From positions 1-40,038 of IMG/VR virus record IMGVR_UViG_3300046002_006899: DNA of 40,038 nucleotides; one strand, given 5' to 3'. Position 1 is the first letter of the stretch. The number at the start of each line of letters is the position of its first letter. A model generated the notes under the pieces. That model had not been told where the DNA came from. It made no database searches and saw only the letters and a list, made by a program, of their open reading frames with translations. A program made the position numbers and the translations under genes. Origin of the DNA: a virus (Duplodnaviria > Caudoviricetes). Positions 443 to 38,912 of this stretch are shown piece after piece.

Positions 443-484
443 GACCATAGCAACCGACCACACTTTGACCACAAACTGACCACA
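443..484 (+). promoter_or_regulatory. Integrase arm-type sites (P' arm)
   Basis: GACCACA at 456, 467 and 478 (11-bp period) plus GACCATA at 443; the last copy abuts the integrase ATG. Confidence 0.7.
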
Positions 485-1566
485 TGAGCGACTCCCACAC
501 CGTCACATGGCAGCGAAAGAACTACACGCTCACTCCCCACCGCGAGGGCTGGAGACTCCGCAGCCGCGCCCGAGGCAACAGGATAGACCTCGTTTTCCCC
601 TCGTGCTCCATCACGAGCGCGAAGCGTCAGGCCCGCGAACACTTCGAGGGAGAGCAGAAGATACTAGCCCGAGGCGACAAGGCGACACTTGAGGAGGTGC
701 TCGCTGTTTACCGACAGATGCCCAAGAAAGCAGGCGAGAAGGCCGCATACATAAACGAGTGCCGACTGCGGGCCGTGATCCGCACCACACTCAAGAGAGA
801 ACTGCGCGACGTGACAGTGAGCGAGATCGGCCCTCAGCTTTGGCTTGATTACATGGCCTCGAAGCTTGGCGGGAAAATCGACCTCGCCCGCCGCCGCCCA
901 GGCAATGCGGCCGTAAATTCTGCCGTGCGTTGTGCGGCCTCGATCTTCATCGAGCGCCTACGTCCAGGCTACCGAGCCCTCGGGGTGATCGTGCCAGACG
1001 ACGCGACGAATATTCAATGGCTCCCCACGATGCAGATCCCCAAGCCCTCGGTGCGGCCCGAGTTGCTCGAAATATGGGGAGCCATGAACAAGGGCGCGAT
1101 GTACTGGACGATTGGCCTCGCCCGCTTTGCTGGCCTTCGTCGCCACGAGGTGAGCGCCTGCTCTCGCTCGTGGATAGTCGAGGACAAGACAGGGGTGTAC
1201 GTCGAGATGCGCGACCGACCAGAGGAGGGGTTCACCCACAAAACGGGAGAAGTATATCGAGCACGAGTCACGAGCCCAGCCTTTGCCGCTGAGTTGCTCG
1301 CTCGACCTACGGGCCTGATCGTTCAAGAGACAGCCCCAGGCATGACGCGAGATTACTGGTTCCGCTACTACCCGCCCGAATGGCTCAAGCCCTTCACAGG
1401 CACCGCATACAAGCCGCTGCACCGCCTGCGCAGCCTCTACGCCGATGAGGTAAAGAAGCTCACAGCGGATGCGGTAGCAGCCCATCAGGCAGGCGTGAAG
1501 GCCGCGAGCTTTGCTCTCGGACACACGAACACGGACACGACCGAGAAGGCGTATCTCACAGCGTAG
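484..1566 (+). CDS. int: Tyrosine integrase
   Basis: Catalytic motifs AGLRRHEV (R), LHRLRSLY (HxxR) and LGH...AY; adjacent to tRNA-derived attP. Confidence 0.92.
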   Translation: MSDSHTVTWQRKNYTLTPHREGWRLRSRARGNRIDLVFPSCSITSAKRQAREHFEGEQKILARGDKATLEEVLAVYRQMPKKAGEKAAYINECRLRAVIRTTLKRELRDVTVSEIGPQLWLDYMASKLGGKIDLARRRPGNAAVNSAVRCAASIFIERLRPGYRALGVIVPDDATNIQWLPTMQIPKPSVRPELLEIWGAMNKGAMYWTIGLARFAGLRRHEVSACSRSWIVEDKTGVYVEMRDRPEEGFTHKTGEVYRARVTSPAFAAELLARPTGLIVQETAPGMTRDYWFRYYPPEWLKPFTGTAYKPLHRLRSLYADEVKKLTADAVAAHQAGVKAASFALGHTNTDTTEKAYLTA

Positions 1567-1957
1567 GAGGGGGCGGCAATCTTCCAGCCTCGACCATTTG
1601 CCGCTCATCAAGAGCCAGCGCCTTAATCTCATCAGGCAAAGAATCGAAGACATTAATATTCCTACCCCTCCCTGCATCTAGTCGCCCTTGTAAGATTGAC
1701 AACGTATCAACCGCGAGAGCCCCAGCAGAAATTAAAGGTTGGACTAGGGGAGCGATCTCCTTCAAGTCGGCCCGCTTATGGACGCGTACGGCCCGCTGAT
1801 CGTCCAGCACTACCCACCAATCACCCAGCAGGTCTTGCTTCACCAGACACAGAAACTGTGTTACTTCGCCAGGGGTTCGCACCGCTGTGGGACGGGAGAG
1901 AGCAAAAAAGGCCGCGCTCAAATCCTGAGCTTTCGAGGCTGGAACAAACATCTTCAT
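1556..1957 (-). CDS. Hypothetical protein (possible fibre/RBP partner)
   Basis: ATG at 1957 overlaps the upstream stop (ATGA); converges on int. Confidence 0.7.
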   Translation of the reverse strand: MKMFVPASKAQDLSAAFFALSRPTAVRTPGEVTQFLCLVKQDLLGDWWVVLDDQRAVRVHKRADLKEIAPLVQPLISAGALAVDTLSILQGRLDAGRGRNINVFDSLPDEIKALALDERQMVEAGRLPPPPTL

Positions 1958-2838
1958 GCCATCAGGGCGCTCCTGATCGCCGCTTCGTTCGCTGTTTGGT
2001 CGCTGGTCCAAATGGCCATCTCTTGAATGGAGTTAGTATCTGAAGTGTATTCAGATGTCCCACTAAACATCCCTATGGCAATCTGGTTGAAGCTAATGGC
2101 TGCCGGTTGGGATATAACCCATGTATTGGTGCCGTCCCTCAGTGTGATACTGCCAGCTCCGTCAAAAATAATAGAGAGCAGATAATTTGAATTAAAAGCA
2201 CCAGAGAAGTCACCAATCCAGGTCAGTGTGCCAGCACCAGTTCCATTTCTATGACAGAACGCGGGCTTTGATGCCCCGTCGCCAAAGCTTCCACTTAGGC
2301 CGAAGGAAAAATAACAGTCAATAATGCTGTTAAAAACTCCGCTGTAAGTTCCATGTTCACCGCGCAAGAAAATACTGACCGGATTACCATCGCTCACCCC
2401 GAACGCATTAGTGACAAGGCTTCCGCCGTGATCGGGAGTCCCGCTTGACACGCGCAATCCACGGCTCGCTGCCTTGCCTCCCACCGTCACCAGACTACCC
2501 GCATCCACCAAAATGCGTTGTTCGTCAGCTGTCGCTTGCAGCAGATCATACCCATTCACCTGCCCCCGCAGCGCCGCCACCGCCACCGAGTTCGCACCCG
2601 CAAAGCTCAGCAGCCCAGCCGCATCAAGCTCCCCATCCGCCAGCGCGCTGACATCCACAGGCGTGTCATCACTCGTCCGCCGCCCTTGCAGCAGCGCCCC
2701 CGAGTAAGACGCCACCAACTTGCGCCGATGGCTCCACGCCTCCAAAGGGGCCGTAAACCCATCCAGAGCGCCCACGAAAGGAGACGACCCACGCGGGCGA
2801 TTCTGACCAGTGAGAGAATTAGAATAGCCGAGCTTCAT
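1954..2838 (-). CDS. Concanavalin/arabinofuranosidase-B-like lectin-fold protein, putative receptor-binding protein
   Basis: N-terminal AWSHRRKLVASYSG..RRTSDD..G.LD resembles the AYSLRKL..YTG..RRSSD phage lectin-fold family; beta-rich C terminus. Confidence 0.6.
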   Translation of the reverse strand: MKLGYSNSLTGQNRPRGSSPFVGALDGFTAPLEAWSHRRKLVASYSGALLQGRRTSDDTPVDVSALADGELDAAGLLSFAGANSVAVAALRGQVNGYDLLQATADEQRILVDAGSLVTVGGKAASRGLRVSSGTPDHGGSLVTNAFGVSDGNPVSIFLRGEHGTYSGVFNSIIDCYFSFGLSGSFGDGASKPAFCHRNGTGAGTLTWIGDFSGAFNSNYLLSIIFDGAGSITLRDGTNTWVISQPAAISFNQIAIGMFSGTSEYTSDTNSIQEMAIWTSDQTANEAAIRSALMA

Positions 2839-3712: not shown

Positions 3713-4350
3713 AGAGTGACAGAAATCTTCCCGCCTTCTTGGCGGATGAGAGGGGGCGAGGAATAACCGTAGAGGACGCGCCCGCTCTTCTGGTCGCAGA
3801 GCGTCGAGCTTGGGGCGATTGACACCTTCATTCCGCGCTGAACGCAGACAGAGAGCCAATACTCAACGCACGCCCTGCCGGTCTGGCCGTCTGCATGCTG
3901 GCCCGCTGTGTAGTCGCAGCCGTAGAGCTTGAGATGCCGCACCTTAAGTAGCAAGGCCATACCGACCGCATAGGCGACTGTGTTGTTGAAGTAAGTGTAA
4001 CGGCCATCGTTGAGCACGTCCTCAAGAGGGAAGGCAACCGAGCCAGGGAACCCCTCATAGGCACGCTGAGAATAGACCGGGCCGGGATGCTTCACGAGCC
4101 AGTCACCAAAGCCAGCAAGCGCAGGGTTTGCCTCGCGGCCTGCCTTTGCAAAGTAGGGTAAGGCATCCATGCAGAAAAGACGGTCGTGTTGAATGACGCC
4201 GCCCATCGCATTGATTGCCCAAGTCTCATCAGCGACCGCATGCCGCGAAGACTTGGCGATGCAATCGTTCATGTAATCGGAGCGACTCGGACCCATGGCG
4301 ACGATTGCGACGCAGTAGGGAGCGCCGCTGTCCCCCGTGGAGGTGCTCAC
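3709..4350 (-). CDS. Sialyltransferase/Maf/MptE-like fold protein
   Basis: VAIVAMGPS, WAIN, DRLFCMD, NTVAYAVGMA and LKLYGCDY follow the motif order of that fold. GTG at 4350 overlaps the fibre stop; alternative start 4365. Confidence 0.55.
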   Translation of the reverse strand: MSTSTGDSGAPYCVAIVAMGPSRSDYMNDCIAKSSRHAVADETWAINAMGGVIQHDRLFCMDALPYFAKAGREANPALAGFGDWLVKHPGPVYSQRAYEGFPGSVAFPLEDVLNDGRYTYFNNTVAYAVGMALLLKVRHLKLYGCDYTAGQHADGQTGRACVEYWLSVCVQRGMKVSIAPSSTLCDQKSGRVLYGYSSPPLIRQEGGKISVTL

Positions 4351-5708
4351 TGTCCGGCCTCCCATCGTTCGCCCTTTTCAGGGAGGTATTCGCCATCCCA
4401 GAACGCCACCGAGTGAGCGCGCTGCTTCTCAGTCGCCCGAGGCATGAACCACGAGGGGAACTCACGACGCACACCGAGGCACATCTCATGGAGGCCGTCG
4501 CTCGTGTTGAAGCGAAGAACTTCGCCCGTGATCGTTTCAAGGAAGGCAGGGGGCAGGGGCGCACCCACTGGCTGCACATGGAAGAAGTAGGGACGGGTAG
4601 CCTCAGCACAAGCAAGCTCGTAAATGCCTGACTCCGTTTTGACGAAAGAACCTTTCGGGCCGGTTGGACCCATTGGACCGGCGACCGTTGACGCCGCGCC
4701 AGTTGGACCAGTGGAGCCAGGACTGCCGGTCGTTCCCGCTGGACCGGTGGGACCGGCTACCGTTGATGCTGCACCGGTCGGCCCTTGAATTCCTTGAATT
4801 CCTTGAATCCCCTGAATGCCTTGGATTCCTTGAAGTCCCGTAGCTCCAGCAACCCCTTGGATACCTTGGATACCTTGAGTGCCTTGCGCCCCCGTCAATC
4901 CAGTATCGCCAGTGAGACCTGTTCCGCCCTGTGCGCCAGTCGCACCAGTGTCGCCCTTGGATGCGAACAGAGTCCAGTCAGAAGGGGACGAGCCGGGGGT
5001 ATCGGCGACGGTTGTGCGCAATGCAATCCATGCGTCGCCCGCATACGTTACGACTTCGCCGGCAAAGTATGTCGTGTCCGCATTGTAGGCGAGACGGAAA
5101 TTCATTGGAGGCCCGACAATACCTTGAATGCCTTGGATGCCTTGAGGCCCAGTCGGACCGACATCGCCGACGACAGCAAGCACCCAGTCACCCACGGACG
5201 CGGAGGCGGAACGGTAAAGCGCCTCGGTGTCGTATTGGATACCGAGTTGACCAGCGCGCCGAGGCTTAACCGCTGCACGCGCCGCATCATTGGCCCAGGC
5301 GTAAGTATCGCGAAGAGCGCCGTCGCCTTCACCGCTCACATAGACCCCGTTCCCGTCGATGGCACGGGCGAGTTGCTGCGTTAGCATCGTCTGTCTATCA
5401 AATGCCTGCTCGATTTGAGCGGCAGACATCGCGCCGGAGGCGGGGAAAACGGTCGGCTGAGTCAGTGGCAGGAACCGATAGACCACGAGCTGAACGTCCG
5501 AGGCGATGGCCGGATTCGTTTTGACCTCAGCGGGTGATGCCGTGACGACGTAAAGATTCTCGTCGAGATCCACGATAGCGCCCGCGCCGTTCAAGGTGCC
5601 GACCTTGACGTGAGCCACGTCGAGGAAAGTGAAGCTAATGGGATACGCGACAGTGGTCGAGCCATTGCCCGTAAAAACTAGCCGCGTAATTTCTGAATCG
5701 ACTGCCAT
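4347..5708 (-). CDS. Tail fibre: T7 gp17-like N terminus, CBM5/12-like module, collagen repeats, possible C-terminal chaperone domain
   Basis: FTGNGSTTVAYPISFTFLD anchor; YNADTTYFAGEVVTYAGDAW...PG...W; long Gly-X-Y runs. Start taken at ATG 5708, downstream of the promoter motif. Confidence 0.85.
   Translation of the reverse strand: MAVDSEITRLVFTGNGSTTVAYPISFTFLDVAHVKVGTLNGAGAIVDLDENLYVVTASPAEVKTNPAIASDVQLVVYRFLPLTQPTVFPASGAMSAAQIEQAFDRQTMLTQQLARAIDGNGVYVSGEGDGALRDTYAWANDAARAAVKPRRAGQLGIQYDTEALYRSASASVGDWVLAVVGDVGPTGPQGIQGIQGIVGPPMNFRLAYNADTTYFAGEVVTYAGDAWIALRTTVADTPGSSPSDWTLFASKGDTGATGAQGGTGLTGDTGLTGAQGTQGIQGIQGVAGATGLQGIQGIQGIQGIQGIQGPTGAASTVAGPTGPAGTTGSPGSTGPTGAASTVAGPMGPTGPKGSFVKTESGIYELACAEATRPYFFHVQPVGAPLPPAFLETITGEVLRFNTSDGLHEMCLGVRREFPSWFMPRATEKQRAHSVAFWDGEYLPEKGERWEAGQ
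4783..4836 (-). repeat. 9-bp tandem repeats encoding (GIQ)n collagen
   Basis: About six CCTTGAATN-like units with synonymous variation. Confidence 0.85.
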
Positions 5709-5719
5709 GTCGCCAACCG

Positions 5720-5744
5720 GGGGAATCACTGAGGTCGAAGTCAA
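5720..5744 (-). promoter_or_regulatory. Late promoter motif (tail fibre)
   Basis: TTGAC-N12-GATTCCCC, 11 nt before the ATG. Confidence 0.75.
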
Positions 5745-5794: not shown

Positions 5795-5938
5795 ATGAAA
5801 ATCGCACTCATTGCCATTGCGGCCCTTGCTCTCGGATACGTCGCAGGAATCTCCCGCGAGAGCGCCCGACGCGACTCCCTTAAGAGCCGCGTCGATTCGT
5901 TCATTCTCGGAGTCGAGAGCGAAGTCGCCCGCCGTTAA
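5795..5938 (+). CDS. 47-aa single-TM protein on the opposite strand (moron-like)
   Basis: MKIALIAIAALALGYVAGISRESARRDSLKSRVDSFILGVESEVARR*; fills an intergenic gap; its stop overlaps the giant ORF stop (TTAA). Confidence 0.65.
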   Translation: MKIALIAIAALALGYVAGISRESARRDSLKSRVDSFILGVESEVARR

Positions 5939-8900
5939 TCGAACGCGTTCCCGATCATCTTCGCGGCGTCAGTGAAGACGTGCGACATCGCAGCAATGCC
6001 CGCGAGGTTGTCAGCGCCAGGGATAGGCAGCAGCGCAGAGGCAGAGAGAATCGTATCCACGTCCTTGATGAGCTTCACCGCATCATCCTCGCCATTGAGC
6101 AGGCGCTCGATAGCCGCAGGGGAATGCACGAGGCCGCTCAGCATGCCGCCGTTCCCGCTGAGTTCATCCACGAGAGGGATACCATGGAAGGGCGAGGCGA
6201 GCGTCTGACTCATCAGATGCGCGACGCTCCACTTTTCTTTTCTGTCATCGCCACCGGCTTCCTTGAGCAGGTTCTTAAGCACAGCGGGAAGCAAGCCACC
6301 GACGACCGTCGCGAGGAAAACAACCTTCGCCGCGTACACCGGATCTTTCTTGGCATTCACGATACCCCAGGCAGCGAGCGCGAGCTTCTGCCGAGCCTCG
6401 GAGGCGTAGGCCCATCCAACTTTTGCGAGAGGGTTTGTCGAGGCCACCTCGAAGAAGGAGCGCGTCGCCATACGGACAGGCTGAGCGACCTGCTCAGTCT
6501 CCCGCTCAGCTTCACCGTGAGCATACGTCTCAAGCTCCACACCTGTGAGTAGAGCCTTGCGCCCCTGCTCACGATGGAAGTCGAGAAGGATTGCATACGT
6601 GCCACCTGTAAAGAGACCGTCAGCAGCAGAGACCAGTTGACCGAGCCAGCGAACCGAGCGGCTGATTTGATTCGGACTCTTGGCGGTCGCGAGCGACTGC
6701 ATCGCCTGCCGCACAATCGGCGGAGCGTTCTTGATACGCCGCTGCATGAAGGGCGAGTTGATTGCATCGCCCCATCCAAGCTGCCCCCTGTTGAGCTTGT
6801 AAAGGCGCGTCGTGAAATCGAGAACAGGCATCTTTACCGATGCCGCCGCAAGCTGAGTGCTCTGGACAGCCAGCACCGAGATACGACCGAGCAGGCCGAC
6901 CGTAGCCGCTCGATTCGTCACGGCCCGCATTCCTTCCGTCAGTGCCACACCTGCCGAGGCATCCTTCACGCCGTTCGTTGCGATGGCATCGCGCCACTTG
7001 CCAACCATGAGAACAGCCTCGCGGCTTGCCTTTGCCTCAACTGCGTTCATCACCTCGCGATTGCCGAGGATGCCCGTCATTTCCTGAGCGAGATCGTAGT
7101 AGGCTTTCCAATGAGCCATCATCTTTTTGTGAGCGATGATCTTCGTCACTGCGTCGCGGAAGTCAGGCTCAGCGACCGCCGACACCGAGCGCGTGCGGAG
7201 ACTGCCAGGGGTGAGAATCGAGCCCGTCGTCGAGTGCCCCGTTGAGGGGTCGATCATCTCGCCTTGCTTCGCCGTGACAGGCTTCACAGAGATAGGCGAG
7301 TAGAGGCTATTGTGAGCCATGTTTACGCCGTTGCGCTCACGATAGAGCGGGTTCAACTGCGACCACTCGGAGGCGTAGTTGTCAGAGACCCACGCCATCA
7401 CCTCGAACGCCTCGGGAGACATCGCCGCCGTGACGCGATCAATCCAGGCCTGATCGTAATGCCATGCGCTAGTGACCTTGCCGCTCTCGTCGAAAGTCCC
7501 TTCCATGTGGCGACGACCGTCCTCTTGCCGCCAAGTGAGGAAGGCGTCGATTGCTTGGAGTTGTGAGATTGTGCTCGTGCCCGTGTCGATGTTCTTTTGT
7601 GACATCGAGAACCGGAGACGCTCACCCGCGAGTTCATCGCTTTCGAGCTTCTTGCCACCACCAGCCAAGCGAACGAACAGAGCTTCTAGGCCATCGGCAA
7701 ACTCTTGATTTTCGTCCTCGTATTGATTCGATGCGCCTCGCTCCATATCGATGAGCGCATTCACGAGGTCGCTCTCTCCGAAGCTATATGTCAGCAACTC
7801 GTGAAACGAGGAGAGTGAGAGCATTGCGCTCCTGAGCTTCCCCGTGAATGTCGCCGCGACCTTCTCCGCAGCATCCCGCCCGCGCTGAGTGCCCGCCGTG
7901 CCAGTCGAGGCGATGAGCGCCCGTTGCATGGCCTGCCACCGCTCACGCCTCGCAATGAGACGCTGCTTCTGTGCAAGGGTGCCGTAGCGCATGAGATCCG
8001 TGAGCGCGTCAATCGCTGAGTAAATCCGCCCCACGTCCGCGCCATCATAGCCGCGCACCCGCACCGGGTTTCCCTTCACGTTGATCTTGCCCGAGTCCAT
8101 CGAGCGAGGGAACAAGTTCCCGCAGAGTTCAACGATACCGCGCTCCATCTCCGCAGTCACCGCCTCTTGCGGAGTGAGTGTGTCACTCGCGAGAATAACG
8201 TCGAGCTTCGCAAGCTCACCGGCGACCTGCACCTCAGTCATTCGAGAGACGGCCTCGGCACGTTGGAAGAGGAAATGCTCATCAGCGCCGAGCTTACCCT
8301 TTGCTTTCTTGCCTGCCGTGTAGTCAGCCGCCGCCTTCTTGAAGAGAGCCGTCACTTCGTCGAGCCCCTCCTTGCGGAGCCACTTCGCAAGCTCTTCATC
8401 GAGCTTCTGAATGCGAGCCTCGATTTCCTTGAGCATGGCCTCGTCTGTAGCCAGACCGGCCAGCTTCACGTACCCGCCGACCTTCACGCGCACCTCGGCA
8501 GGCACAGCAGATAGAAGAGCGTCGAGAGTGCGCAGCCCGCCTTGCAGCATCTTGCGCTGTGTTGCGTCACTGCCCGACGTTGCCCGCTCCTTGTTCGCCC
8601 AGGCCGTAGCCTCAAGCTTCGCGTCAGCTTTTGCGCGCGCCCGAATATCCGCAGCCTGAGCGAGCGCCTGCTTATATTCAGCGTTGCCCTTCTCGATAGA
8701 GGCGAACGTCGAGGCGATAGCGTCCCAGAGATCGTCAGTCTTGTCACCAGCCACGAGGCCGGGATTGTCACCCTCAAGGATGGAATTCAAAAGCTGGTCG
8801 GGAGTCGCCCCGCCGCCATACATCCACGATGGAAGCACAGGCATGCCGTTATATTGATCGAGCGTCTTACCTTGTCTCTTGGCCTCAGTGAAGGACATGA

Positions 8901-11900
8901 GCCGACCAGTGCGACGCTTAACGACGTTGCCCGACGAGTCACGCTTGAGCACTTCCTTGTCGCCCTTGATTGTGGACACCGGGACCATCTTCGTGATTTC
9001 TTGGATCAACGGGAACTCTCCCGCCTTCGTCATCATGCCGTCAGACTCCAACGCAGCACGCAGAGCCGGACCCATAGCATCGAGACCGTCATTCACCCGC
9101 TGAGCGTAGCCGACCGCTTCACGCATAGCCGCCTCCTTATTGATCGACCTCGCGCCGCGCTGCTTGGCAGACTGAGCGACCCACTCAGCGCCGACACGCT
9201 GCACACGAGCGAGGGCAATCTTCGACATCTCGCGCCGGAGGGCGGGGGACGCATCGAAGGGAGACATTGCCGAGGCCATACGGGCCGCGAAGTCGTGGCT
9301 CGTGAGCGAGAGAGTGATTCGATTGCTTGCGGGGTTAAACCGCTTCGACAATGGAACAACATCGCCACCCTCACGAGTGACAGGCTCCGCGCTCTTAACG
9401 TTCTCGGGAGAAAAAATAATCCAGTCCTCATCAAGGTGAACACTCTCGAAGTCTCTCACGATTTGATACTCGCCGAGCTTGTCGTATTCCGTCCATCCAG
9501 CGGCCCGACCAGTGCGCAGAAATACCGGCATAATTTTTTTGATGCCTTGCGCGCCTGCATCGCCCGACGCGATCCTTTCGCGATCCTCGGAGAACCAGAG
9601 AGCGCGACCGAATTGAGCCTTGAAGATTTTGAAGTTCTTGCTCGTGCCATGGTAAGCCTTCACGTCATAGCCCGCAGACTTTGCAGCAGCCTCGACCATG
9701 GCGCTTTGCTTGGCGACATCGCGAGACTTCACGGCCTCCATGTATTCGGCATCTTGCGCGGGAGTCACGAGAGAGAAGCTGATACGAGAGTCATTCGCCG
9801 AGAACTCGCCGGAGTTTGGGACAGCGCCAACAATAGGCAGACGATCAACCCGCGAAAGCATCGCGCCGGTGAGAGCAGACTTAGCTTGTGATGGATTGAA
9901 CCAAACGAAAACACGAGCCGGACGCGAAGACTTGCTCACCTTGTAGTCGTCAACGACGTTCTCAATAATCATGCCGTCCGCATCGCCGACTTTAGCCTTA
10001 GCTATGGCATCCTTCATTGCCTGATAAACGATATTGTCAGTCCACGAGCCGCCCTTCGCGTCGATGATTACAGGGTTCTGAATCGACAAATAAAGCGGGA
10101 TAATTCCCGGCTCCGCATTCTGATAATCTGACGAGCGCCGGTCGTCCGCATACGTTGCTGCCTTGCGCTCTGAATCCGTCGCGAAGAATACCGAGCCACG
10201 ACTGAACGCCTTGAACCCTTCCGAGAAGATACCACGAACGTCTGGCGCTCCATGAAAGACGACGAGAGGCTTGCCACCATCGACGACTTTCGACTCCTTG
10301 AACCACTCCTTAAAATTAGAACTCGTGAGCGAGAACGTCGCTCCACCAGCGAGCGCCATCTCGACACCAGCACCACCCACGCGGAACGGGCCAGCCGCCT
10401 CGACGCTCTTCATCGTCTCAGTGAGGCCGACGAGAATCTTGCCGCTGTCGTTCGCCTCATTGATTTGCTGCATGAACCGCTCAGCCGTGAGGCCGGGGGC
10501 GTGCTTCTTCATTGCATCATAGACCGCACGGATAGGCACCATGGCCGAACTCGTGCCACGCTGCGCCGCCTGATAGGCCAGGATGAGCGACGACTCTCCA
10601 CGCGCTTTCTGTGCAGCCTCAGCGAGGCCCGCAGGAATTGGAAACTTGCGACCGAGAGAGAAGGTTTCACCATTCGGTCCCGGCGTTTCCTCCGAATAGC
10701 CGGACGTGTCTACCATCTCAGCGGCCAGCATATCAGCGACGGACTGCTCGTGAACAGTCTGCCCGTTGCTCCCGGTGAGTTGATCGAAAAGAGAATCATA
10801 GTCAGCGCCAAGCTTGCCCTCAGAGCGTGCCGTAAACAGCTTGTCAGCAATGTCGAGTACTGCCTTAAAGAACTCGGAGAAGGCCCGCAGGATGGCAGCA
10901 AATGCGCCCATTTGCCTATCATTCAAATCGAGCGCGCCGCCGATTGAGCCGGGAGCGATACGCTTGCCATCTTGAAGACGACCGAGCACGTCAGCCACAA
11001 CGATGCGACTAATCGCTTCCGTGAGCGCACGAGGGGACGCTTCCGCTGATGCGAGCACCTCCTCATGTGTCGCGCCTTCGAGGAACTTCTCGCCCGTGGC
11101 TTGCTCCGCCATCTTTACCCAGGCGACGCCTTGCGCCTTCGTGAACTTGCCAGCATCGAGCCCGCCCTTCCATCGTCCTTCGACAGTCTCCTCGACCACC
11201 GTCAGGAATGGGTGAGCGTTCCCTTGAAGGTTGACCGTCGATTGAGACTTGTCGCCGCTCACTTGATTCGAGCCGAGCGCGACGAGATTCGTCACCGTCT
11301 GCCGAATCGATTCTGTGCGAGCGTCCACCGTCTCGCCGCCGAAGACGTGATGAGCGATAGATTTCGCCTCCTGAGCCGAAACTCCCTTGAGTAGACCCGC
11401 AGCGATAGCCGCGTCCATCGCCTCGACTGGTGTCGTCTTTCCGGCCTGCACACGTTCGCCGAGGGTCTCGCCCTTCTGAACTGCATCGACTGACTCGCCA
11501 TCGCGAAGCATCAGCTTGTCAGCCATGGCCGCGACCATTTCCGACTGGTGACGCTCGACTTCCGTCATGTGCTGCGTTGCCACGTCGCGAGCTTGATCCC
11601 ACGTTGAGAAGCGCGCAGTCTGCCCGCCGCTCGTTACCGTGTAGCCCGTGCCATCGCGCCGGATGTCAGGGAGCAGGCCGCGCCGGACGTACTCAGCCGT
11701 GACGCTGGCAGTCTGAGCGTCTGCCGCCTGCATGCGATCTTGATACTCTGCCGCGACAGTTGCGTCGCGACGACCCCAGGCATCCCGCAGGAGGCTTTGC
11801 GCAGCCTCAACGTTGCCCGACTGAGCGGCCTCGGAGATGGCGACGCGATCCGGTTCCACGATGCCCTGAGCGCCGAGCTTGTCGGACCATGAGAGCAGGG

Positions 11901-13617
11901 ACTTAGCGCCGCGATACTCTTGCACGCTGGCCGCGCCGATGCCGAGCAGTGTTAAGGGAAGCATGCCTATTGCCACGTTCACCCGCCCCCCCTTAAACTT
12001 CTCAAATTCCTTGCCCCAGTCATAGCCGGGAACGTCCGACGTGAGCGCAGCCATGAGGGCCGGGGTCGCGATGTCCTGCCCAGCCTCGACAACGTTCTCG
12101 ACGATGTACGCACCCGCTGCACGACCGAGCGCCCGCTTGACGAGCTCACCCTTCCAATTGCCAGCGATGAGAGACTTGAGGCCGGGGAGGTTTTTGAGCG
12201 CCGAGAACTCAACGAAGTCGCCCGCCGCCTGAATCGCGCCAGACATGCCGGAGACCATCGACTTGTCGGCGTGGCTCATTTGTGGATACTTCACGCTCAA
12301 CTCTTCATATTCCGCGCCCTTGTAAAGGCCAGCGAGCACGGGGGCCGCAGTGCCACGAGTCGCTGCAATCACACCAACGAGCGCCGCGCTCGTGCCGATT
12401 GTCGAAGCGAAAAGATTCGGGATAGGATCAACGGCGGAACCGATGGAGTCTAGTTCTTGCCCAGTGCGAACGGCGCGAGAAGCGCGATCCTTGGCCGCAT
12501 TGATGAGCATCGTCTGCTCTGGTGTAAGGGTGATGTCCTCGCCCTCTTGACGAACGGGGGCGGGGTTGGGGGATTGATCGTTGAACCGCTGGCCGCTGGC
12601 GTAGCTCAACGCATCGCTCACATAGCGGTCGGCATCAGCCGCCGAGGTGAGAGGACCATTCACACGCACCGAGCCGGACACAGGCAGAGCATCGAGAGTC
12701 TGTACAATATCGGCATTGCTTGAGCCGGAGAGCCCAGAGTTGAGCAGCCGCCCGCCCGCCTCGCCGACTTGCTGCCAGAAGGTGCCATTGTCAGAGACGT
12801 ACTCGCCACCCTTTTCCGCTGAGTTGACCTTGCCCCTCTTCTCCGCCTCTGTTCTCAGCGCAGCGAGCACGATTCTACGCTCTCCGCCAGGGAGATCGAC
12901 CAAAGAGGCACGAGCCGCGCTCAACGTCTCAGAATCGCCCTCTTGAGGCTTGCCGAGCATGTCGCGCTCCATCGGGTCAATGATCGAAGTCAGCAGCCCG
13001 CGATGCTTCGAGAGCACGTCGCCCGTTCTCTTGTAGGCTCCGAAGAGAGCCTTGTGCTTCACCTCTTCATCGGGCGAGGCCATGGCATCAGCCGCAAGCC
13101 CAGGCATCGCGTCAAACGTTCCCATATCAGAGAGTGCCGCCCGCATGCCTTCGTGAGCGCTAGCGAGGGCCGTCTCCTCTTTCGCGGCCTGCTCGTTCAC
13201 CTCTTTCGCCGCGAGGCCGTAGAATGCCTTGTCGTCGATCCCACCGGGGACGTTGAACTTCTGCCGAGCATACTCGCCCCGGTAGTAGTCGGGACGGTCG
13301 GCGATGGTCTGAGCCGGGAGGTTGAACCGCTGAGCGAGGAAAGGAATGTTTGCATGAATCGCCTTATCGCGGTCGGGGTCATCAGAATACGGAGAAACGG
13401 AGGCCGTCGATTTATCGAGTCCTTGGAACTGCGAGCGGAACGCCTTCGTTGCTTCTTGGCTTGCGGCCTCCTCAGCAGGATAGAGAGGAGCACCGAACTC
13501 GGCTTGCTGGTTTGCGTAACGTTGCAGCCATTGACGAGCGACAGGCTTCTCGTGATCTCCGAGGAGGTCGAAGGTGTCGCGAACTTGAACGGCGTCGTTT
13601 TCTGTGAGGAGGGGCAT
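5935..13617 (-). CDS. Giant internal virion (ejection) polyvalent protein with two ADP-ribosyltransferase-like domains
   Basis: 2560 aa at the T7 gp16 position; FKEWF..SKVV..PLVVFHG..FF..PLYL.I.NP..F.P.Q.KS and AYHGT..WFS..PVFL..FSPENVKSA..PLSKRF match the ART-PolyVal pattern. Confidence 0.8.
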   Translation of the reverse strand: MPLLTENDAVQVRDTFDLLGDHEKPVARQWLQRYANQQAEFGAPLYPAEEAASQEATKAFRSQFQGLDKSTASVSPYSDDPDRDKAIHANIPFLAQRFNLPAQTIADRPDYYRGEYARQKFNVPGGIDDKAFYGLAAKEVNEQAAKEETALASAHEGMRAALSDMGTFDAMPGLAADAMASPDEEVKHKALFGAYKRTGDVLSKHRGLLTSIIDPMERDMLGKPQEGDSETLSAARASLVDLPGGERRIVLAALRTEAEKRGKVNSAEKGGEYVSDNGTFWQQVGEAGGRLLNSGLSGSSNADIVQTLDALPVSGSVRVNGPLTSAADADRYVSDALSYASGQRFNDQSPNPAPVRQEGEDITLTPEQTMLINAAKDRASRAVRTGQELDSIGSAVDPIPNLFASTIGTSAALVGVIAATRGTAAPVLAGLYKGAEYEELSVKYPQMSHADKSMVSGMSGAIQAAGDFVEFSALKNLPGLKSLIAGNWKGELVKRALGRAAGAYIVENVVEAGQDIATPALMAALTSDVPGYDWGKEFEKFKGGRVNVAIGMLPLTLLGIGAASVQEYRGAKSLLSWSDKLGAQGIVEPDRVAISEAAQSGNVEAAQSLLRDAWGRRDATVAAEYQDRMQAADAQTASVTAEYVRRGLLPDIRRDGTGYTVTSGGQTARFSTWDQARDVATQHMTEVERHQSEMVAAMADKLMLRDGESVDAVQKGETLGERVQAGKTTPVEAMDAAIAAGLLKGVSAQEAKSIAHHVFGGETVDARTESIRQTVTNLVALGSNQVSGDKSQSTVNLQGNAHPFLTVVEETVEGRWKGGLDAGKFTKAQGVAWVKMAEQATGEKFLEGATHEEVLASAEASPRALTEAISRIVVADVLGRLQDGKRIAPGSIGGALDLNDRQMGAFAAILRAFSEFFKAVLDIADKLFTARSEGKLGADYDSLFDQLTGSNGQTVHEQSVADMLAAEMVDTSGYSEETPGPNGETFSLGRKFPIPAGLAEAAQKARGESSLILAYQAAQRGTSSAMVPIRAVYDAMKKHAPGLTAERFMQQINEANDSGKILVGLTETMKSVEAAGPFRVGGAGVEMALAGGATFSLTSSNFKEWFKESKVVDGGKPLVVFHGAPDVRGIFSEGFKAFSRGSVFFATDSERKAATYADDRRSSDYQNAEPGIIPLYLSIQNPVIIDAKGGSWTDNIVYQAMKDAIAKAKVGDADGMIIENVVDDYKVSKSSRPARVFVWFNPSQAKSALTGAMLSRVDRLPIVGAVPNSGEFSANDSRISFSLVTPAQDAEYMEAVKSRDVAKQSAMVEAAAKSAGYDVKAYHGTSKNFKIFKAQFGRALWFSEDRERIASGDAGAQGIKKIMPVFLRTGRAAGWTEYDKLGEYQIVRDFESVHLDEDWIIFSPENVKSAEPVTREGGDVVPLSKRFNPASNRITLSLTSHDFAARMASAMSPFDASPALRREMSKIALARVQRVGAEWVAQSAKQRGARSINKEAAMREAVGYAQRVNDGLDAMGPALRAALESDGMMTKAGEFPLIQEITKMVPVSTIKGDKEVLKRDSSGNVVKRRTGRLMSFTEAKRQGKTLDQYNGMPVLPSWMYGGGATPDQLLNSILEGDNPGLVAGDKTDDLWDAIASTFASIEKGNAEYKQALAQAADIRARAKADAKLEATAWANKERATSGSDATQRKMLQGGLRTLDALLSAVPAEVRVKVGGYVKLAGLATDEAMLKEIEARIQKLDEELAKWLRKEGLDEVTALFKKAAADYTAGKKAKGKLGADEHFLFQRAEAVSRMTEVQVAGELAKLDVILASDTLTPQEAVTAEMERGIVELCGNLFPRSMDSGKINVKGNPVRVRGYDGADVGRIYSAIDALTDLMRYGTLAQKQRLIARRERWQAMQRALIASTGTAGTQRGRDAAEKVAATFTGKLRSAMLSLSSFHELLTYSFGESDLVNALIDMERGASNQYEDENQEFADGLEALFVRLAGGGKKLESDELAGERLRFSMSQKNIDTGTSTISQLQAIDAFLTWRQEDGRRHMEGTFDESGKVTSAWHYDQAWIDRVTAAMSPEAFEVMAWVSDNYASEWSQLNPLYRERNGVNMAHNSLYSPISVKPVTAKQGEMIDPSTGHSTTGSILTPGSLRTRSVSAVAEPDFRDAVTKIIAHKKMMAHWKAYYDLAQEMTGILGNREVMNAVEAKASREAVLMVGKWRDAIATNGVKDASAGVALTEGMRAVTNRAATVGLLGRISVLAVQSTQLAAASVKMPVLDFTTRLYKLNRGQLGWGDAINSPFMQRRIKNAPPIVRQAMQSLATAKSPNQISRSVRWLGQLVSAADGLFTGGTYAILLDFHREQGRKALLTGVELETYAHGEAERETEQVAQPVRMATRSFFEVASTNPLAKVGWAYASEARQKLALAAWGIVNAKKDPVYAAKVVFLATVVGGLLPAVLKNLLKEAGGDDRKEKWSVAHLMSQTLASPFHGIPLVDELSGNGGMLSGLVHSPAAIERLLNGEDDAVKLIKDVDTILSASALLPIPGADNLAGIAAMSHVFTDAAKMIGNAFD

Positions 13618-21587: not shown

Positions 21588-22481
21588 TTATTTGCCGCTC
21601 GCATAGCCTGCCGCGACCTTCGCCATCACTGCCGCGTCGCCCTTGTGATAGAGTGCGTACTCGGGGTGAGTCTTGTCGCTCATCACTGCCTTTGCTTGCG
21701 CCATGGTGAGCGTGCCACCACCCACGCCACCACCACCCGCCCCGCCGCCGTTGTCTTCACCACTGGCCTTTGCAGCCCACGCGAAAGACTCAAGGGCATC
21801 AGCGCCCCAGAATCCTTTTTCGTTGGTAGGGTCGAAGGCACCGCCAGCGATTGCAGCCTTGAGCGACTCAGGCACACCGGGACGATTCGCGAGGGACTTC
21901 GCCAGAGTGACAGTCTTGTCGATCTCAGGGAAGCGAGCAGCTAGAGCCACACGCTCCGCAGCGATGCCAGCGGCATACTCATCAGCCCGCCCCTTGAGTT
22001 GTGTCGCAGTGTCAGAGAGATGCTTGTTCAGCAGTTTCTCAGCCGCACCCTTTGGGATGCCCAAGGCCTTGAACTCTGCGCGCCACGCATCCATTTGCTT
22101 AGCGTCGATGTTTTCCGGCTTGATGCCCTCGGGGAGGGTATAGCCGTAGTCTTCGAGCTTATCAGGCACACCGAGCGCCTTGTGATAGGCCGCGATGTCC
22201 TCCGCTTTTGCATCAGCCCCAGGCACGCGAATCATGCCCTCGGTTTTTGCACGAGCCGCAGTCATCGAGTCTGAGAGCATCTTGCTCACGTCTCCGAATG
22301 TCTTAGCGCCAGCGAGCGGCCCCTTGTAGTCAGCGCCGAACGCCTTAGCCGTCCAGTTGTCAGCGAAAGCACCGTCAGCGCCGAGCACACCGTCGAACGA
22401 AGGAACGAAGGCCGGAGGAGCACCGCCGCCCCCGCCTGCTTCCGGTTCACCTTCGAGTAAGAATTTTGGGAAGAGCTTCAT
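21588..22481 (-). CDS. Capsid scaffolding protein
   Basis: LGVPDKLEDY motif, helical body, C-terminal MSDKTHPEY..GD; lies between portal and capsid. Confidence 0.8.
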   Translation of the reverse strand: MKLFPKFLLEGEPEAGGGGGAPPAFVPSFDGVLGADGAFADNWTAKAFGADYKGPLAGAKTFGDVSKMLSDSMTAARAKTEGMIRVPGADAKAEDIAAYHKALGVPDKLEDYGYTLPEGIKPENIDAKQMDAWRAEFKALGIPKGAAEKLLNKHLSDTATQLKGRADEYAAGIAAERVALAARFPEIDKTVTLAKSLANRPGVPESLKAAIAGGAFDPTNEKGFWGADALESFAWAAKASGEDNGGGAGGGGVGGGTLTMAQAKAVMSDKTHPEYALYHKGDAAVMAKVAAGYASGK

Positions 22482-26684: not shown

Positions 26685-28003
26685 CCTCTCATCCCGGTAA
26701 TCGCCACGATGGGGACGCGTCTAACGTCTCCCTGCGGTGCAGAATAGTTCTTTGGGATCAAGCCGAGAACATCAGCCTCGGCCATCGTCCGCACGCCGTC
26801 AGAAACATGTGAGGCCCAAGTGTGCAGCGGGAGGTTGACCGTCACGCCCTTGCTTGAATCAGGGGCCGACTCGTAAGCCTTAAGCCCCTTGATACCGATG
26901 TCACACCCAGGCGAGCGGAACTCGAAGGATGGCATAAGCTGAGCAACGTAGTCGATGCCTTGCCACACGTCGGGAATGACAGGCACGACCACGAGGTTCT
27001 TGAATCCTGCGTCTGTCATATCCTGCTCGAAGGTGCGGCCTGAGCGCGCAGTCTGTCGAGCATCATGGGGAAGGTAGTGGTTGCCGTACATGTAGCCCTT
27101 CGCGTCCATGTGAGCCTTGCGGGCCGGTAGACTGTCGAGGTTGAGGCCGTAGTCGCAATCGATCCAACGGAAGCGCCCGAAGGGGAGCCGTTGACCATAC
27201 CAGACGACAGTATTGCGAGGCCCGCCGAGATCCCAAAAGGTATGCACCGGAGAGCGCCCGTCGATAGGGAAGGCTCCGATTCGTTGCTCCGCGAGTGCTG
27301 CGTTCATTTGACGGCCGTAAATCGCGGCCTCGTTCGGTGCCGAGAAGTCACAGTAAAACTCCTGCCGAATCAGAGCCTCGCTCATGCCCGACCGCCGCTC
27401 TTCTTGGATGTCGGCAGCAGAGACGGCCTTCGTGTCATCGACGCCGAGCACCTGAGTGAACCAAGCCGGGTTGTCCGAGTTGATCCGCAGCATCTCGAAG
27501 AAGTGATTTTCTCCGCGAGGCGTGCCGTTGAACCATGCGAAGCCGCCGTTTTCCGCGAGGATGGGGCGAGTGTAGTCCCAAGCCAGCGGGTTCTGTGACT
27601 GGTACTCGGAGAACACCACGCCGAAGAAGTTCCCCCCGACCACGTCGAGGTTGTCAGTGCCGAGGATCTGAATCGTGGAATCGTTCTTGAGCTCGATTCT
27701 CATATCCGTCTCGTTGACCTTCTTCTTGAGTAGGTCGGTCGGGATGTGGTCAATCACTCGGAGCCCGTTGCGAACATCGACGTTCGTCCATAGAGCCTTA
27801 CGGCCAAGCTTAGCGGTCGGGAAATAGTAAGCCATGTTGCAAGGGGTCTCAGCAGCCTTACAAATCATCTTGTTGAACATGAGCTTGTCTTTCCCGGCGC
27901 GACGATGCCACACAGCCATTACCCGCTTCTTGTTGTCCATCTCTCGCCAGAGTGGAAGCTGGTAATCCCTTGGGTCGTACCGGTGAGGGAGAGAGATGGT
28001 CAT
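26681..28003 (-). CDS. terL: Terminase large subunit
   Basis: PRDYQ, WHRRAGKD (Walker A), VVFSE (Walker B), GTPRGENHF, QEFYCDF, WDLG and SH.SD nuclease motifs. Confidence 0.95.
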   Translation of the reverse strand: MTISLPHRYDPRDYQLPLWREMDNKKRVMAVWHRRAGKDKLMFNKMICKAAETPCNMAYYFPTAKLGRKALWTNVDVRNGLRVIDHIPTDLLKKKVNETDMRIELKNDSTIQILGTDNLDVVGGNFFGVVFSEYQSQNPLAWDYTRPILAENGGFAWFNGTPRGENHFFEMLRINSDNPAWFTQVLGVDDTKAVSAADIQEERRSGMSEALIRQEFYCDFSAPNEAAIYGRQMNAALAEQRIGAFPIDGRSPVHTFWDLGGPRNTVVWYGQRLPFGRFRWIDCDYGLNLDSLPARKAHMDAKGYMYGNHYLPHDARQTARSGRTFEQDMTDAGFKNLVVVPVIPDVWQGIDYVAQLMPSFEFRSPGCDIGIKGLKAYESAPDSSKGVTVNLPLHTWASHVSDGVRTMAEADVLGLIPKNYSAPQGDVRRVPIVAITGMRG

Positions 28004-28497
28004 ACTCGGTGACAGGTGAATTGCCCATGAGCCGCTTCGCGTGCTTCCCTGACGGCTACCTCAGCGGCATCAGGCGTAGAGAAGTATCCAACGTGCTTAC
28101 CATTGACGTAGCCCATCCATTTGCCCTTCCATTTGTTCCAGCACACGCCTTTGATTCCGCTCTTGTTGTCATGGTCGGCCCTGCGGTTGTGCATGTTCTC
28201 GGCGTGGCTGGCCTCCCGTAGGTTCTCGATTCGGTTGTCTGAGCGATTACCGTTCGCATGGTCAATGTCGCCAGCGGGCTCTCTGCCGTGATGTAGAAGC
28301 CAAGCAAGGCGATGAGCCTTCAAGAGCCTGCCCTTGATACCGATGAGGATATAGCCTTGAGCTTCACAACCTGCCACGCTTCCAGCCTTGGCCTTGCCTG
28401 TGCTCTTAACCCAACGTAATAGGCCCGTGTCAGGGTCGTAACTCAGCACCGAGGCAATGGTATCGAGTGGGGGGAGTGGCTTGGTATTCTTCTGCAC
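28000..28497 (-). CDS. HNH homing endonuclease with AP2-like C terminus
   Basis: YDPDTG, AHRLAW, IDHANGNRSDNRIENLR, SGIKGV.W motifs. Probable GTG start at 28497; ORF track gives 28527. Confidence 0.9.
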   Translation of the reverse strand: MQKNTKPLPPLDTIASVLSYDPDTGLLRWVKSTGKAKAGSVAGCEAQGYILIGIKGRLLKAHRLAWLLHHGREPAGDIDHANGNRSDNRIENLREASHAENMHNRRADHDNKSGIKGVCWNKWKGKWMGYVNGKHVGYFSTPDAAEVAVREAREAAHGQFTCHRV

Positions 28498-28507
28498 CCA
28501 CAAGCTA

Positions 28508-28532
28508 GGGGAATCAACTTGGAGCAAGTCAA
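28508..28532 (-). promoter_or_regulatory. Late promoter motif (HNH-terL)
   Basis: TTGAC-N12-GATTCCCC-TAGCTT, 10 nt before GTG. Confidence 0.75.
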
Positions 28533-37615: not shown

Positions 37616-37791
37616 AGCTTCGCCCCCCTATCGTATCCGAGAGTGCCGTCATTGTAGCCCGTGGCATAAGCCAGAGCGCGAACACGAGCGCACTCGCTCA
37701 CGAGCTTGTCGCGGAACTGGCGTTCGATGCAGCCAGCGTAGAACCACGCCCCGAGGGAGACGATCATCGAGAGGATTGAGAGAGCAATCAC
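37612..37791 (-). CDS. Small membrane protein
   Basis: GTG at 37791 overlaps the upstream stop; N-terminal TM segment. Confidence 0.55.
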   Translation of the reverse strand: MIALSILSMIVSLGAWFYAGCIERQFRDKLVSECARVRALAYATGYNDGTLGYDRGAKL

Positions 37792-38912
37792 GCCGCGACT
37801 CCCTTCATAAACTGAGCGACCCAGGCCGCAGGTGAACGGAGGCACCGCTCGACATACTTAGCGGTGACATCGCGGAACGTCTGCCCCGCCTTAATCTCTG
37901 ACCGGCTGAGAAGGTAGGAGTTTGCCGCCGCTTCATTCTCGCCGACCACGGCAGAGAGCGGATGCTCACCAGTGACGACGGACGTCTCGACATCGACGAC
38001 CGGCGACAGATGGGGAATCGTGTCATCCTTTGCCGAGATTGTCGTGTCGATTTTTGCAGGAGTCTCGACGGCCAGAACCAATTCGGCAGGCGATGCAGCC
38101 GCGACCGTCTTAACCGCTTCCGCGATCTTCGCGACATCAGGCTTTGCAGCCACGGGCGCAGCCTTCACGACCACGGCAGGAGGCGTAGAGACCGGAGCAC
38201 CGAGGCAGCGGTTCAATGTTGCAACGCTCCATTCCTCTTCCTCCTTGAGGCCATGGCGATTCTTCGCGTCAGACGTGGCGGAGTGAGAAGCGAAGAGTCG
38301 GCGAACCTTGCCGCCGATGCCCTTAAACTTCGTCTTGTCCCCCTCTTCAACTTCGCGAGTGCTCGTCTTCCAGTTGCCAAACAGGAGAGCGTCGCACCAC
38401 TCAGAGACGAGGGGCCGGACGTGCTTCGAGAGCTTCAATTCCCAGCGATCATATGCGCCCGCTGAATCAGGAAGCTCGAACTTCTTCACCTGAACATGGC
38501 CCAGGCCGACGATGTTCATTTTCAAGGCCAGCTTATTAAGCAGCGCCAGCACATCGTTGAACCGCTCGCCGACAATGATAGGACCCTTGCCGTAACCGAA
38601 GGCCTCGATTGATTTCTTGTCATTGACGCGGAGAACGTCAGCAATAACAAACTCTTCGAGCTTGTCGAGGGTGTCGATGAAGAGGGTCCTAAATCCCTGC
38701 GCATCACGCAGCAGAGAGTTGATAATTTCCTCGAAGCCCTTCAAATCGGAAGGCTCAAGACGTGCAACGTCGAGGTGATGAGTGCCCTTTTCCAAGTCGA
38801 TAAAAAGAGCATCAGGCACCCCACTGCCGAGGGTGGATTTGCCGAGGCCGTGAGGGGCGTAGAGGACGATGCGTTGAGGGCGGCGGACTGTGCCGCGTGT
38901 GATGGGAAGCAT
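37788..38912 (-). CDS. Sak4-like AAA_24 ATPase (recombinase)
   Basis: LYAPHGLGKST, FIDLEKG, TLFIDTLD, FGYGKG, YDRW.LKL, EWCD and AKNR motifs. Confidence 0.88.
   Translation of the reverse strand: MLPITRGTVRRPQRIVLYAPHGLGKSTLGSGVPDALFIDLEKGTHHLDVARLEPSDLKGFEEIINSLLRDAQGFRTLFIDTLDKLEEFVIADVLRVNDKKSIEAFGYGKGPIIVGERFNDVLALLNKLALKMNIVGLGHVQVKKFELPDSAGAYDRWELKLSKHVRPLVSEWCDALLFGNWKTSTREVEEGDKTKFKGIGGKVRRLFASHSATSDAKNRHGLKEEEEWSVATLNRCLGAPVSTPPAVVVKAAPVAAKPDVAKIAEAVKTVAAASPAELVLAVETPAKIDTTISAKDDTIPHLSPVVDVETSVVTGEHPLSAVVGENEAAANSYLLSRSEIKAGQTFRDVTAKYVERCLRSPAAWVAQFMKGVAA

Follow-up and report, generated by a model that had tools for sequence, protein, structure and literature searches.

The stretch of DNA analysed here, hereafter the window, comprises 40,038 nt and is a complete virus record with direct terminal repeats (IMGVR_UViG_3300046002_006899; Caudoviricetes). 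Its largest open reading frame (ORF), at 5935–13617 on the minus strand, encodes a protein of 2,560 aa, referred to below as the giant protein, in which a variable array of modules is inserted between two fixed scaffolds. All features of this gene lie on the minus strand. The N-terminal scaffold (aa 1–988; 10654..13617) is common to relatives, whose BLAST matches end at aa 985–990, and contains hydrophobic stretches at aa 399–417 and 546–564. The C-terminal scaffold (aa 1439–2560; 5935..9303) is the most conserved part of the family, and the matches of close relatives begin at aa 1440–1442. Three modules are located between the scaffolds, namely, module A (109 aa including junction 2; 10327..10653), ART1 (186 aa; 9769..10326) and ART2 (155 aa; 9304..9768). 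They are bounded by four motifs of the pattern [TS]-[FL]-S-L, all in frame in the ORF: TFSL at junction 1 (aa 985–988; 10654–10665), where cargo-less relatives carry their single motif, TFSL at junction 2 (aa 1094–1097; 10327–10338), SFSL at junction 3 (aa 1280–1283; 9769–9780) and TLSL at junction 4 (aa 1435–1438; 9304–9315). A fifth [FL]SL, MLSL at aa 1933, is located within scaffold. The first-pass annotation of the window, which described three tandem modules delimited by (F/L)SL, was correct in all motifs and coordinates. It also reported two exact direct repeats at the junctions; both were found, each exactly twice in the 40,038 nt, as an 11-nt pair at 10653–10663 and 9768–9778 (at junction 3) and a 13-nt pair at 10322–10334 (at junction 2) and 9299–9311 (at junction 4).

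Module A gave no match to Pfam, PHROG or NCBIfam, and only unnamed clusters in the ESM Atlas. Its cluster had nine members, which occupied ranks 1 to 4 in their arrays with eight different upstream and five different downstream neighbours. The other two modules had been labelled ART-like; this label was supported for ART1, which matched ART-PolyVal (PF18760) at 51.1 bits against a gathering cut-off of 31.2, but ART2 remained below the cut-off (29 bits, E 2e-6), with a divergent ART-PolyVal-like core between two conserved arms. The identity of ART1 and ART2 was only 21.5%, indicating that they did not arise by a recent tandem duplication. The active site of ART-PolyVal, a member of the Tox-ART-HYD2 clade, is an H-Y-D triad (PMC5512222). 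The strand-1 His was present in both window modules, with Phe or Trp instead of Tyr as the strand-2 aromatic residue; the family-conserved downstream Tyr was kept in ART1 and missing in ART2, and the strand-5 acid was placed without confidence. The reported AT-richness of the ART region was likewise observed: its GC content was 0.537, whereas equal-sized windows elsewhere in the gene had 0.582–0.634 and its amino acids predict 0.569 ± 0.008. Module A (GC 0.629) was not AT-rich. In an alignment of 62 ART modules, an N-terminal and a C-terminal arm of approximately 35 aa each were detected in most, surrounding highly variable cores, some of which were no longer ART-like. These arms suggest a nested cassette inside a cassette, which would provide a second level of exchange.

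We then compared the giant protein with its relatives, for which we write the boundary motif as [TSP]-[FY]-S-[LIV]. A search with the C-terminal scaffold yielded 148 homologues, of which 120 were listed; among the matches listed, the 29 closest relatives include the window protein. The N-scaffold match ended within 4 aa of a motif in 25 of these 29, and the C-scaffold match started within 6 aa of one in 26. The motif was concentrated in the variable region, with 108 occurrences per 17,190 aa against 5 per 57,929 aa of scaffold in the 29 close relatives. In a set of 100 loci, reduced to 76 non-redundant genes of at least 1,500 aa (window gene included), 73 genes gave 246 motifs per 57,246 aa of variable region and 30 per 128,848 aa of scaffold, an 18-fold difference in density. 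A later, separate profile search gave a 16-fold difference (198 per 57,329 aa against 38 per 180,971 aa, in 101 of 126 proteins). The C scaffold had no match among 50,697 GenBank phages, and thus no cultured relative was found; one of the relatives carries the label Verrucomicrobiales in its source. The N and C scaffolds also reassort independently: several proteins (L009, L034, L053, P0003 and P0014) are approximately 95% identical to a relative in one half and much less so in the other.

When 174 of 184 proteins were divided at the motif, 385 segments were obtained, which fell into 134 clusters (89 of them singletons) and formed 122 distinct module strings; these counts are rough, as the pattern overlooks degenerate motifs such as the TLSL of the window and breaks up a few domains that contain it by chance. 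Module alignments of at least 60% identity (n=397) started at module edges in 318 cases and ended there in 296. In 57 of 60 relatives, the variable region had a lower GC content than the scaffold, a pattern expected for acquired DNA. When 70 of the 134 cluster representatives were scanned, 22 matched Pfam families (ART-PolyVal, PBECR5, MuF_C, LPD3, LPD13, LPD23, Kinase-PolyVal, RadC, PRTase, ParB_N, DUF7178 and DUF6098), and 48 had no match. A mini-module of 28 aa between two motifs was observed in 24 proteins (just after junction 1 in L012, L013, L034 and others), 19 times at the first rank, and a 31-aa analogue in nine other proteins; the 28-aa unit is possibly a released peptide or a spacer.

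The motif was also present where cargo was lacking. Among the 28 proteins with the shortest middle region, 21 had the motif, and 19 had exactly one, mostly right behind the peptidase-like domain described below; the motif therefore exists without cargo and without a partner repeat. Within one protein, motif variants (for example, of the ETFSLR, APFSLA or NYSIG type) agreed with one another (0.43 for the residue that follows the motif in 745 pairs, compared with 0.17 by chance), and the variants were specific to phage lineages. The residues preceding the motif were rich in Gly, Pro, Asp and Asn. In the window, 17 of the 18 other ORFs tested, those for capsid, scaffold and portal among them, lacked the strict motif, an argument against a protease of general head maturation.

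The expectation that domain content changes at the motif was borne out by the 122 strings in 174 proteins and by individual comparisons. P0002, the closest relative among the matches listed (77–90% identical part by part), has an extra module of 331 aa exactly at junction 1. Near-identical gene pairs gave the same picture: L010 and L012 are 99.6% identical and one 402-aa PBECR5 module apart, L016 and L017 differ by one 149-aa ART-type module, and L028 and L098 by two modules. In several other gene pairs, replacements ended approximately 12 nt or less from the motif. DNA homology in the variable region ended within 20 nt of a motif in 41 of 79 cases, compared with a null mean of 5.2 and maximum of 14 (1,000 draws); the 79 ends count both partners of a pair and are not 79 independent events. 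The corresponding signal in protein BLAST was weak (16–17% of breakpoints no more than 5 aa away, compared with 6%), as match ends are blurred there by conserved arms and variable inner loops. One module was 85% identical between L031 and L082, the scaffolds of which were 24% and 46% identical; judged by sequence, this is a horizontal transfer bounded by the motif. In view of these results, we are highly confident that modules are exchanged at the motif. The tail of the N scaffold, which precedes junction 1, was also found recopied at internal module borders (L009 from aa 1331 onward, L068 at aa ~1105 and P0031 at aa 810–820), which points to the copying of junctions as modules were captured.

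The N scaffold ends in a domain overlooked by the first-pass annotation, a gluzincin-like metallopeptidase-type domain at aa 767–952 (10762..11319). It carries a pattern [HE]-E-x-x-[HE], followed by a conserved Glu approximately 55 residues further on; in the window these are EETVE at 11179–11193 and E867 at 11017–11019. The domain was present in at least 751 clusters at 50% identity. The putative general-base Glu (E810) was kept in 171 of 174 relatives and replaced by Asp in three, and the putative third-ligand Glu (E867) was kept in 173. The two His ligand sites were occupied by His or Glu in 167, with the combinations EExxE in 71, HExxH in 46, HExxE and EExxH in 25 each, and others in 7. 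The window copy thus departs from the HExxH of zincin-like metallopeptidases, which is found in part of the family only. In a FastTree phylogeny of 233 rows, the ligand combinations switched at least 14 times; this is a quick tree with long-branch warnings, and its starred branches force fewer switches. A change from His to Glu requires two base changes in the genetic code. The recurrence of such swaps suggests that the metal site is kept.

The zincin-like core consists of an N-terminal helix, a three-stranded sheet and two C-terminal helices; AF2 models of the domain (pLDDT 78.5 and 82.6) showed a helix, two strands, a motif helix and a Glu helix, with E810 and E867 on predicted helices. For the window domain, the model alignment of which was misregistered in the strands, Foldseek gave no match at E ≤ 0.001, and the best VIA score was Z 6.3 with no zincin listed. 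For L023, an HExxH relative, Foldseek found nothing in the PDB, the best BFVD matches were polyvalent proteins of uncultured phages (E ~0.01), and the best VIA-align score was Z 5.5. The VIA rows for L023 included 3dl1 (Z 5.1, rmsd 3.6, 92 aligned) and 2l0r (Z 4.7, rmsd 4.2, 89 aligned), which we take to be zincin folds, within the noise band. Sequence profile searches of the PDB, whether based on the domain or on the entire protein, yielded no credible match, and the ESM Atlas gave unnamed clusters only. A complex prediction for the window domain and a 32-residue junction-3 peptide scored 0.01 with controls that did not fold, a result that counts neither for nor against an interaction. From its residues and models, the domain is a candidate processing protease, predicted to be metal-dependent.

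The gene content of the window is that of a podovirus-type phage. It includes genes for the portal (PF12236), capsid (PF19821), tail tube and tail fibre and an internal-virion-protein match (phrog_418), which together surround the giant ORF as in the virion gene blocks of polyvalent proteins. The giant ORF is preceded by the tail tube genes and two smaller ORFs and followed by the tail fibre gene. In T7, the ejection genes are ordered gp14-gp15-gp16. The matching order suggests, by analogy, that the giant protein is an ejection protein, although it had no sequence match to any known ejection protein. A comparable protein, gp47 of phi24B (2,811 aa, with LPD domains), has been detected in virions, and its ejection has been proposed (bioRxiv 10.64898/2026.04.10.717836). 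From gene order and this analogy, the giant protein is likely a virion component that enters the host by ejection.

We propose, with a little better than even confidence, that the giant protein is a self-cutting injected polyprotein, in which the motif is the predicted processing site and the cargo is restocked by homeologous recombination. The observations underlying this model are the fixed scaffolds, the variable array, the exchange of modules at or near the motif, the conservation of the motif at the amino-acid level (considered below), the conserved peptidase-type residues directly upstream and the single motif in most cargo-less relatives. The ancestor would have had one motif between two protein halves, and the boundary motif would be recognized and cut by the predicted metallopeptidase that closes the N scaffold. 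New domains would have entered at the ancestral motif site and been retained only if in frame and motif-terminated, because only such domains would be released in working form. Exchange would occur via ordinary homeologous or short-homology recombination, likely through the Sak4-like annealase of the phage, with the motif codons and the conserved arms of 30–60 codons of neighbouring modules as substrates. The exact DNA repeats of the window would then be by-products of junction copying, usable as microhomology and not needed. Cutting, probably during or after ejection, would free the ART and other effectors against host functions. Under selection for releasable in-frame units, ordinary recombination would thus come to resemble cassette exchange. 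Proteolytic release, mentioned in passing by the first-pass annotation, is the leading explanation for the retention of the motif; that the adjacent peptidase-like domain is what cuts the motif we consider an even chance. In its boldest form, which we put forward tentatively and regard as possible rather than probable, the ejection protein of a widespread podophage family (at least 751 clusters at 50% identity) would be a plug-in socket, into which any tag-ended domain can be recombined, to be packaged, injected and cut free by an internal protease that has exchanged its zinc-binding His for Glu time and again and remains active, perhaps with another metal. This would provide a cleavage code for polyvalent proteins, a new type of zincin active site and a sequence-only rule to parse injected effectors.

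Several observations weigh against this proposal. Of the DNA-level breakpoints, 38 of 79 were off the motif, often at the inner edges of the ~35-aa conserved arms that flank most ART cores, and at the protein level (50% identity or more), no more than 15 of the 63 starts and 15 of the 46 ends were located within 6 aa of a motif (null approximately 5%). The strict motif was missing in 23 of 275 proteins, and exact runs of at least 11 nt were shared by 38 of 408 junction pairs against a null of 13.7. The placement of the giant protein itself in the virion comes from gene order alone. The peptidase assignment is one of residue pattern and predicted topology, and none of 60 domain members matched a Pfam peptidase family at a meaningful level. 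In EETVE, both His positions are occupied by Glu; the window copy thus does not conform to the textbook HExxH and may be a pseudo-enzyme. Lineages with EExxE kept as many motifs as those with HExxH (3.2 and 2.8 per protein, respectively), as would be the case if activity were retained or if the motif were independent of catalysis. The motif variant tracked the domain (rho 0.23) hardly better than it tracked the C scaffold (0.19; 125 proteins). In addition, the virion RNA polymerase (RNAP) of N4 contains a peptidase domain of this kind and enters the virion uncut (PMC5512222).

In one alternative, the motif is a protein-level signal that the adjacent domain does not cut; it would be read by a host protease, or would act as a docking or unfolding signal that threads each cargo through the ejection conduit, and the Glu-liganded domain would be a binder or a pseudo-peptidase. 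In favour of this are the 121 of 174 relatives in which one or both His ligands are replaced by Glu while the motifs persist, a motif variant that is not clearly tied to the domain, and the uncut delivery of ArdC and TraC1, which bear the MPTase domain as does the N4 virion RNAP (PMC5512222). Against it, E810 and E867 are nearly invariant, and the ligand sites swap almost exclusively between two metal-binding residues and have done so on at least 14 occasions. The domain also directly precedes the first motif, and the motif variants follow phage lineages. We consider this alternative rather unlikely, and return to the self-cutting polyprotein as the preferred reading.

The first-pass annotation had placed the mechanism in the DNA, with in-frame direct repeats driving the loss, gain and shuffling of modules; the peptide motif would then be their translated trace. 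Part of the DNA evidence fits this. With the protein held fixed and codons redrawn from the usage of the giant gene itself, 13- and 11-nt junction pairs were obtained in only 0.12% of 20,000 redraws, and the repeats of the window are thus not explained by peptide and codon preference alone; the remaining four window junction pairs have 4–5 nt in common. Across the family, exact runs of at least 13 nt were found in 20 of 408 junction pairs against 5.2 expected, and copies of the N-scaffold tail recur inside the arrays. The only clean-looking indel, that of L016/L017, lies in a 9-nt exact (11/12) microhomology. Some junctions, including those with the window repeats, were probably copied from one another. 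Junction 4 of the window (9299–9315), which differs from the FSL-RSG usual in relatives, equals junction 2 (10322–10338) over 13 nt, and a junction-to-junction conversion specific to the window phage is a possible origin. One sequencing run, stored as contigs and possibly the source of the window itself, contained this stretch and showed no deletion joints, a result that does not establish their absence.

DNA identity was, however, not the conserved feature. The codons of the motif were free: AGY serine codons were used in 74 of 246 motifs (66.5 expected), so that both serine codon families occurred at background rates, and Phe and Tyr codons were mixed. At one and the same junction, close relatives differed between TCN and AGY serine, even in the 99.6% identical pair. 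Of 193 within-gene pairs with the same core tripeptide, only 27 matched over all 9 nt, and exact runs in the 408 junction pairs had a median of 3 nt. Synonymous identity at junctions was 1.18 times the expected value within genes and 1.13 times between genes, compared with 1.09 times for control tripeptides; long exact runs were nevertheless in excess. A single motif, which cannot act as a repeat, was kept in 19 of the 28 shortest relatives. In L010/L012, the best-resolved event, the crossovers were off the motif, in the flanking arms: a patch was replaced, and mismatches cluster over ~190 nt on its upstream side and 45 nt on its downstream side, which places the crossovers about 45 and up to about 190 nt from the motif, a signature of homeologous recombination with a related donor. 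Taken together, selection on the motif very probably acts at the protein level, and the repeat-driven model appears improbable. Phage annealases such as lambda Red recombine diverged DNA (PMC2327257), and Sak4 is an ATP-dependent annealase (PMC5928155). The window encodes a Sak4-like single-strand annealing protein (37788..38912, minus; phrog_124, E 1.2e-40; phrog_69, E 3.5e-10), and an adjoining exonuclease (36569–37615). We infer that the Sak4-like protein is the candidate recombinase for module exchange and would perform such recombination at the giant gene.

A further alternative holds that the motif is a structural linker that is never cut, a short strand that caps a domain or packs on the scaffold; modules would have their borders there simply because fusions elsewhere would misfold. 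A small-aromatic-Ser-aliphatic sequence appears strand-like, and unrelated folds all end in it; however, a fold-specific role does not explain why ART, PBECR, kinase, RadC, PRTase and LPD modules share the same end, and the Gly, Pro, Asp and Asn before the motif resemble exposed linkers. This seems highly improbable. A true integron-like system, in which a recombinase such as the tyrosine integrase at 484–1566 (plus strand, opposite to the giant ORF; phrog_1, E 4e-9) would move cassettes at a DNA site within the gene, fits the gain and loss of whole modules and the presence of the integrase gene, but has practically no standing: the codon freedom of the junctions already largely refutes it, there is no conserved DNA core, the four window junctions had no stable hairpin (z −1.6 to +0.7), attC-like fold or local inverted repeat, the integrase, ~7.7 kb off, is the only one in place of a linked IntI and has no NCBIfam match, and tblastn of the 385 modules found no stand-alone cassette in 1,001,662 nt of flanks (76 genes; flanks of up to 10 kb).

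The giant protein belongs to the polyvalent proteins as defined by Iyer et al. 2017 (PMC5512222), given two ART-PolyVal matches in the window and polyvalent-family domains in relatives. In that work, zincin-like domains were predicted to process the polyvalent proteins that carry them, and domain accretion and mosaic domain sets were described. The giant protein resembles these proteins in its large multidomain build, virion gene block, predicted self-processing peptidase and mosaicism, and in its cargo (ART-PolyVal, PBECR5, MuF_C, LPD3/13/23, Kinase-PolyVal, RadC, PRTase and ParB-like). It differs from what the main text of PMC5512222 presents in having one socket between fixed scaffolds, motif-ended units, exchange followed at the nucleotide level and His/Glu swaps. 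That main text describes no junction motif, and its supplementary FTP alignments may show one. A literature search, with subscription papers outside its scope, found no described junction motif and no EExxH proteases.

Other systems share single aspects. Like podophage ejection proteins, the giant protein is encoded by the largest gene, with tail tube and phrog_418 genes before it and a tail fibre gene after it; unlike them, it lacks a sequence match to a known member and has a variable cargo array in mid-protein. In crAss-like phages, the virion RNAP polyprotein, with the zincin-like gp65, provides a case of giant packaged proteins proposed to be cut into components (bioRxiv 10.1101/2020.03.07.982082); as described there, it is a fixed set of three fused proteins, with no swappable array or recurring motif. 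The idea of injected ARTs was restated in PMC9503650. In polymorphic and MuF toxin systems, effectors are likewise recombined at a conserved border and released by autoproteolysis, but, as outlined in PMC5512222, one C-terminal tip is varied from stand-alone cassettes, whereas here up to approximately nine units lie in mid-protein and no spare cassettes were found. The resemblance to integrons is one of outcome only, an ordered cassette array with units gained and lost at one site. Integrons have attI/attC DNA sites, a linked IntI and separate promoter-driven genes; the giant gene has none of these.

Self-processing was proposed in 2017 without a cleavage site (PMC5512222), and the giant-protein family offers a candidate site together with an adjoining candidate enzyme. 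How polyvalent proteins trade domains without breaking a virion protein of 2,000 residues had been open, and the near-identical pairs that are one module apart bear on this question. New in this study are the gain, loss and transfer of modules at the nucleotide level, the test of peptide against DNA selection, the cargo-less forms with a single motif and the switching of ligands between His and Glu. The motif parses the variable region into units, and the 48 of 70 scanned representatives without a Pfam match, from a sample of 134 module clusters, are candidate injected anti-defence or host-takeover proteins whose borders are known. If the Glu-liganded copies are active, peptidases of the EExxE type escape annotation based on HExxH.

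Elsewhere in the window, RusA is also encoded, and the tyrosine integrase suggests a temperate phage. An HNH endonuclease gene (28000–28527, minus) is located between the small and large terminase genes. The gene at 21588–22481 (minus), in the position of a scaffolding protein, had a weak match to PHROG 'protease' (E 7e-4, no passing stretch) and encodes a Gly/Ala-rich product with Gly-rich runs. The ORF at 4347–5744 (minus) encodes a collagen-repeat tail fibre with a weak CBM_5_12 match, and that at 1954–2838 (minus) showed a weak match to the catalytic domain of arabinofuranosidase B.

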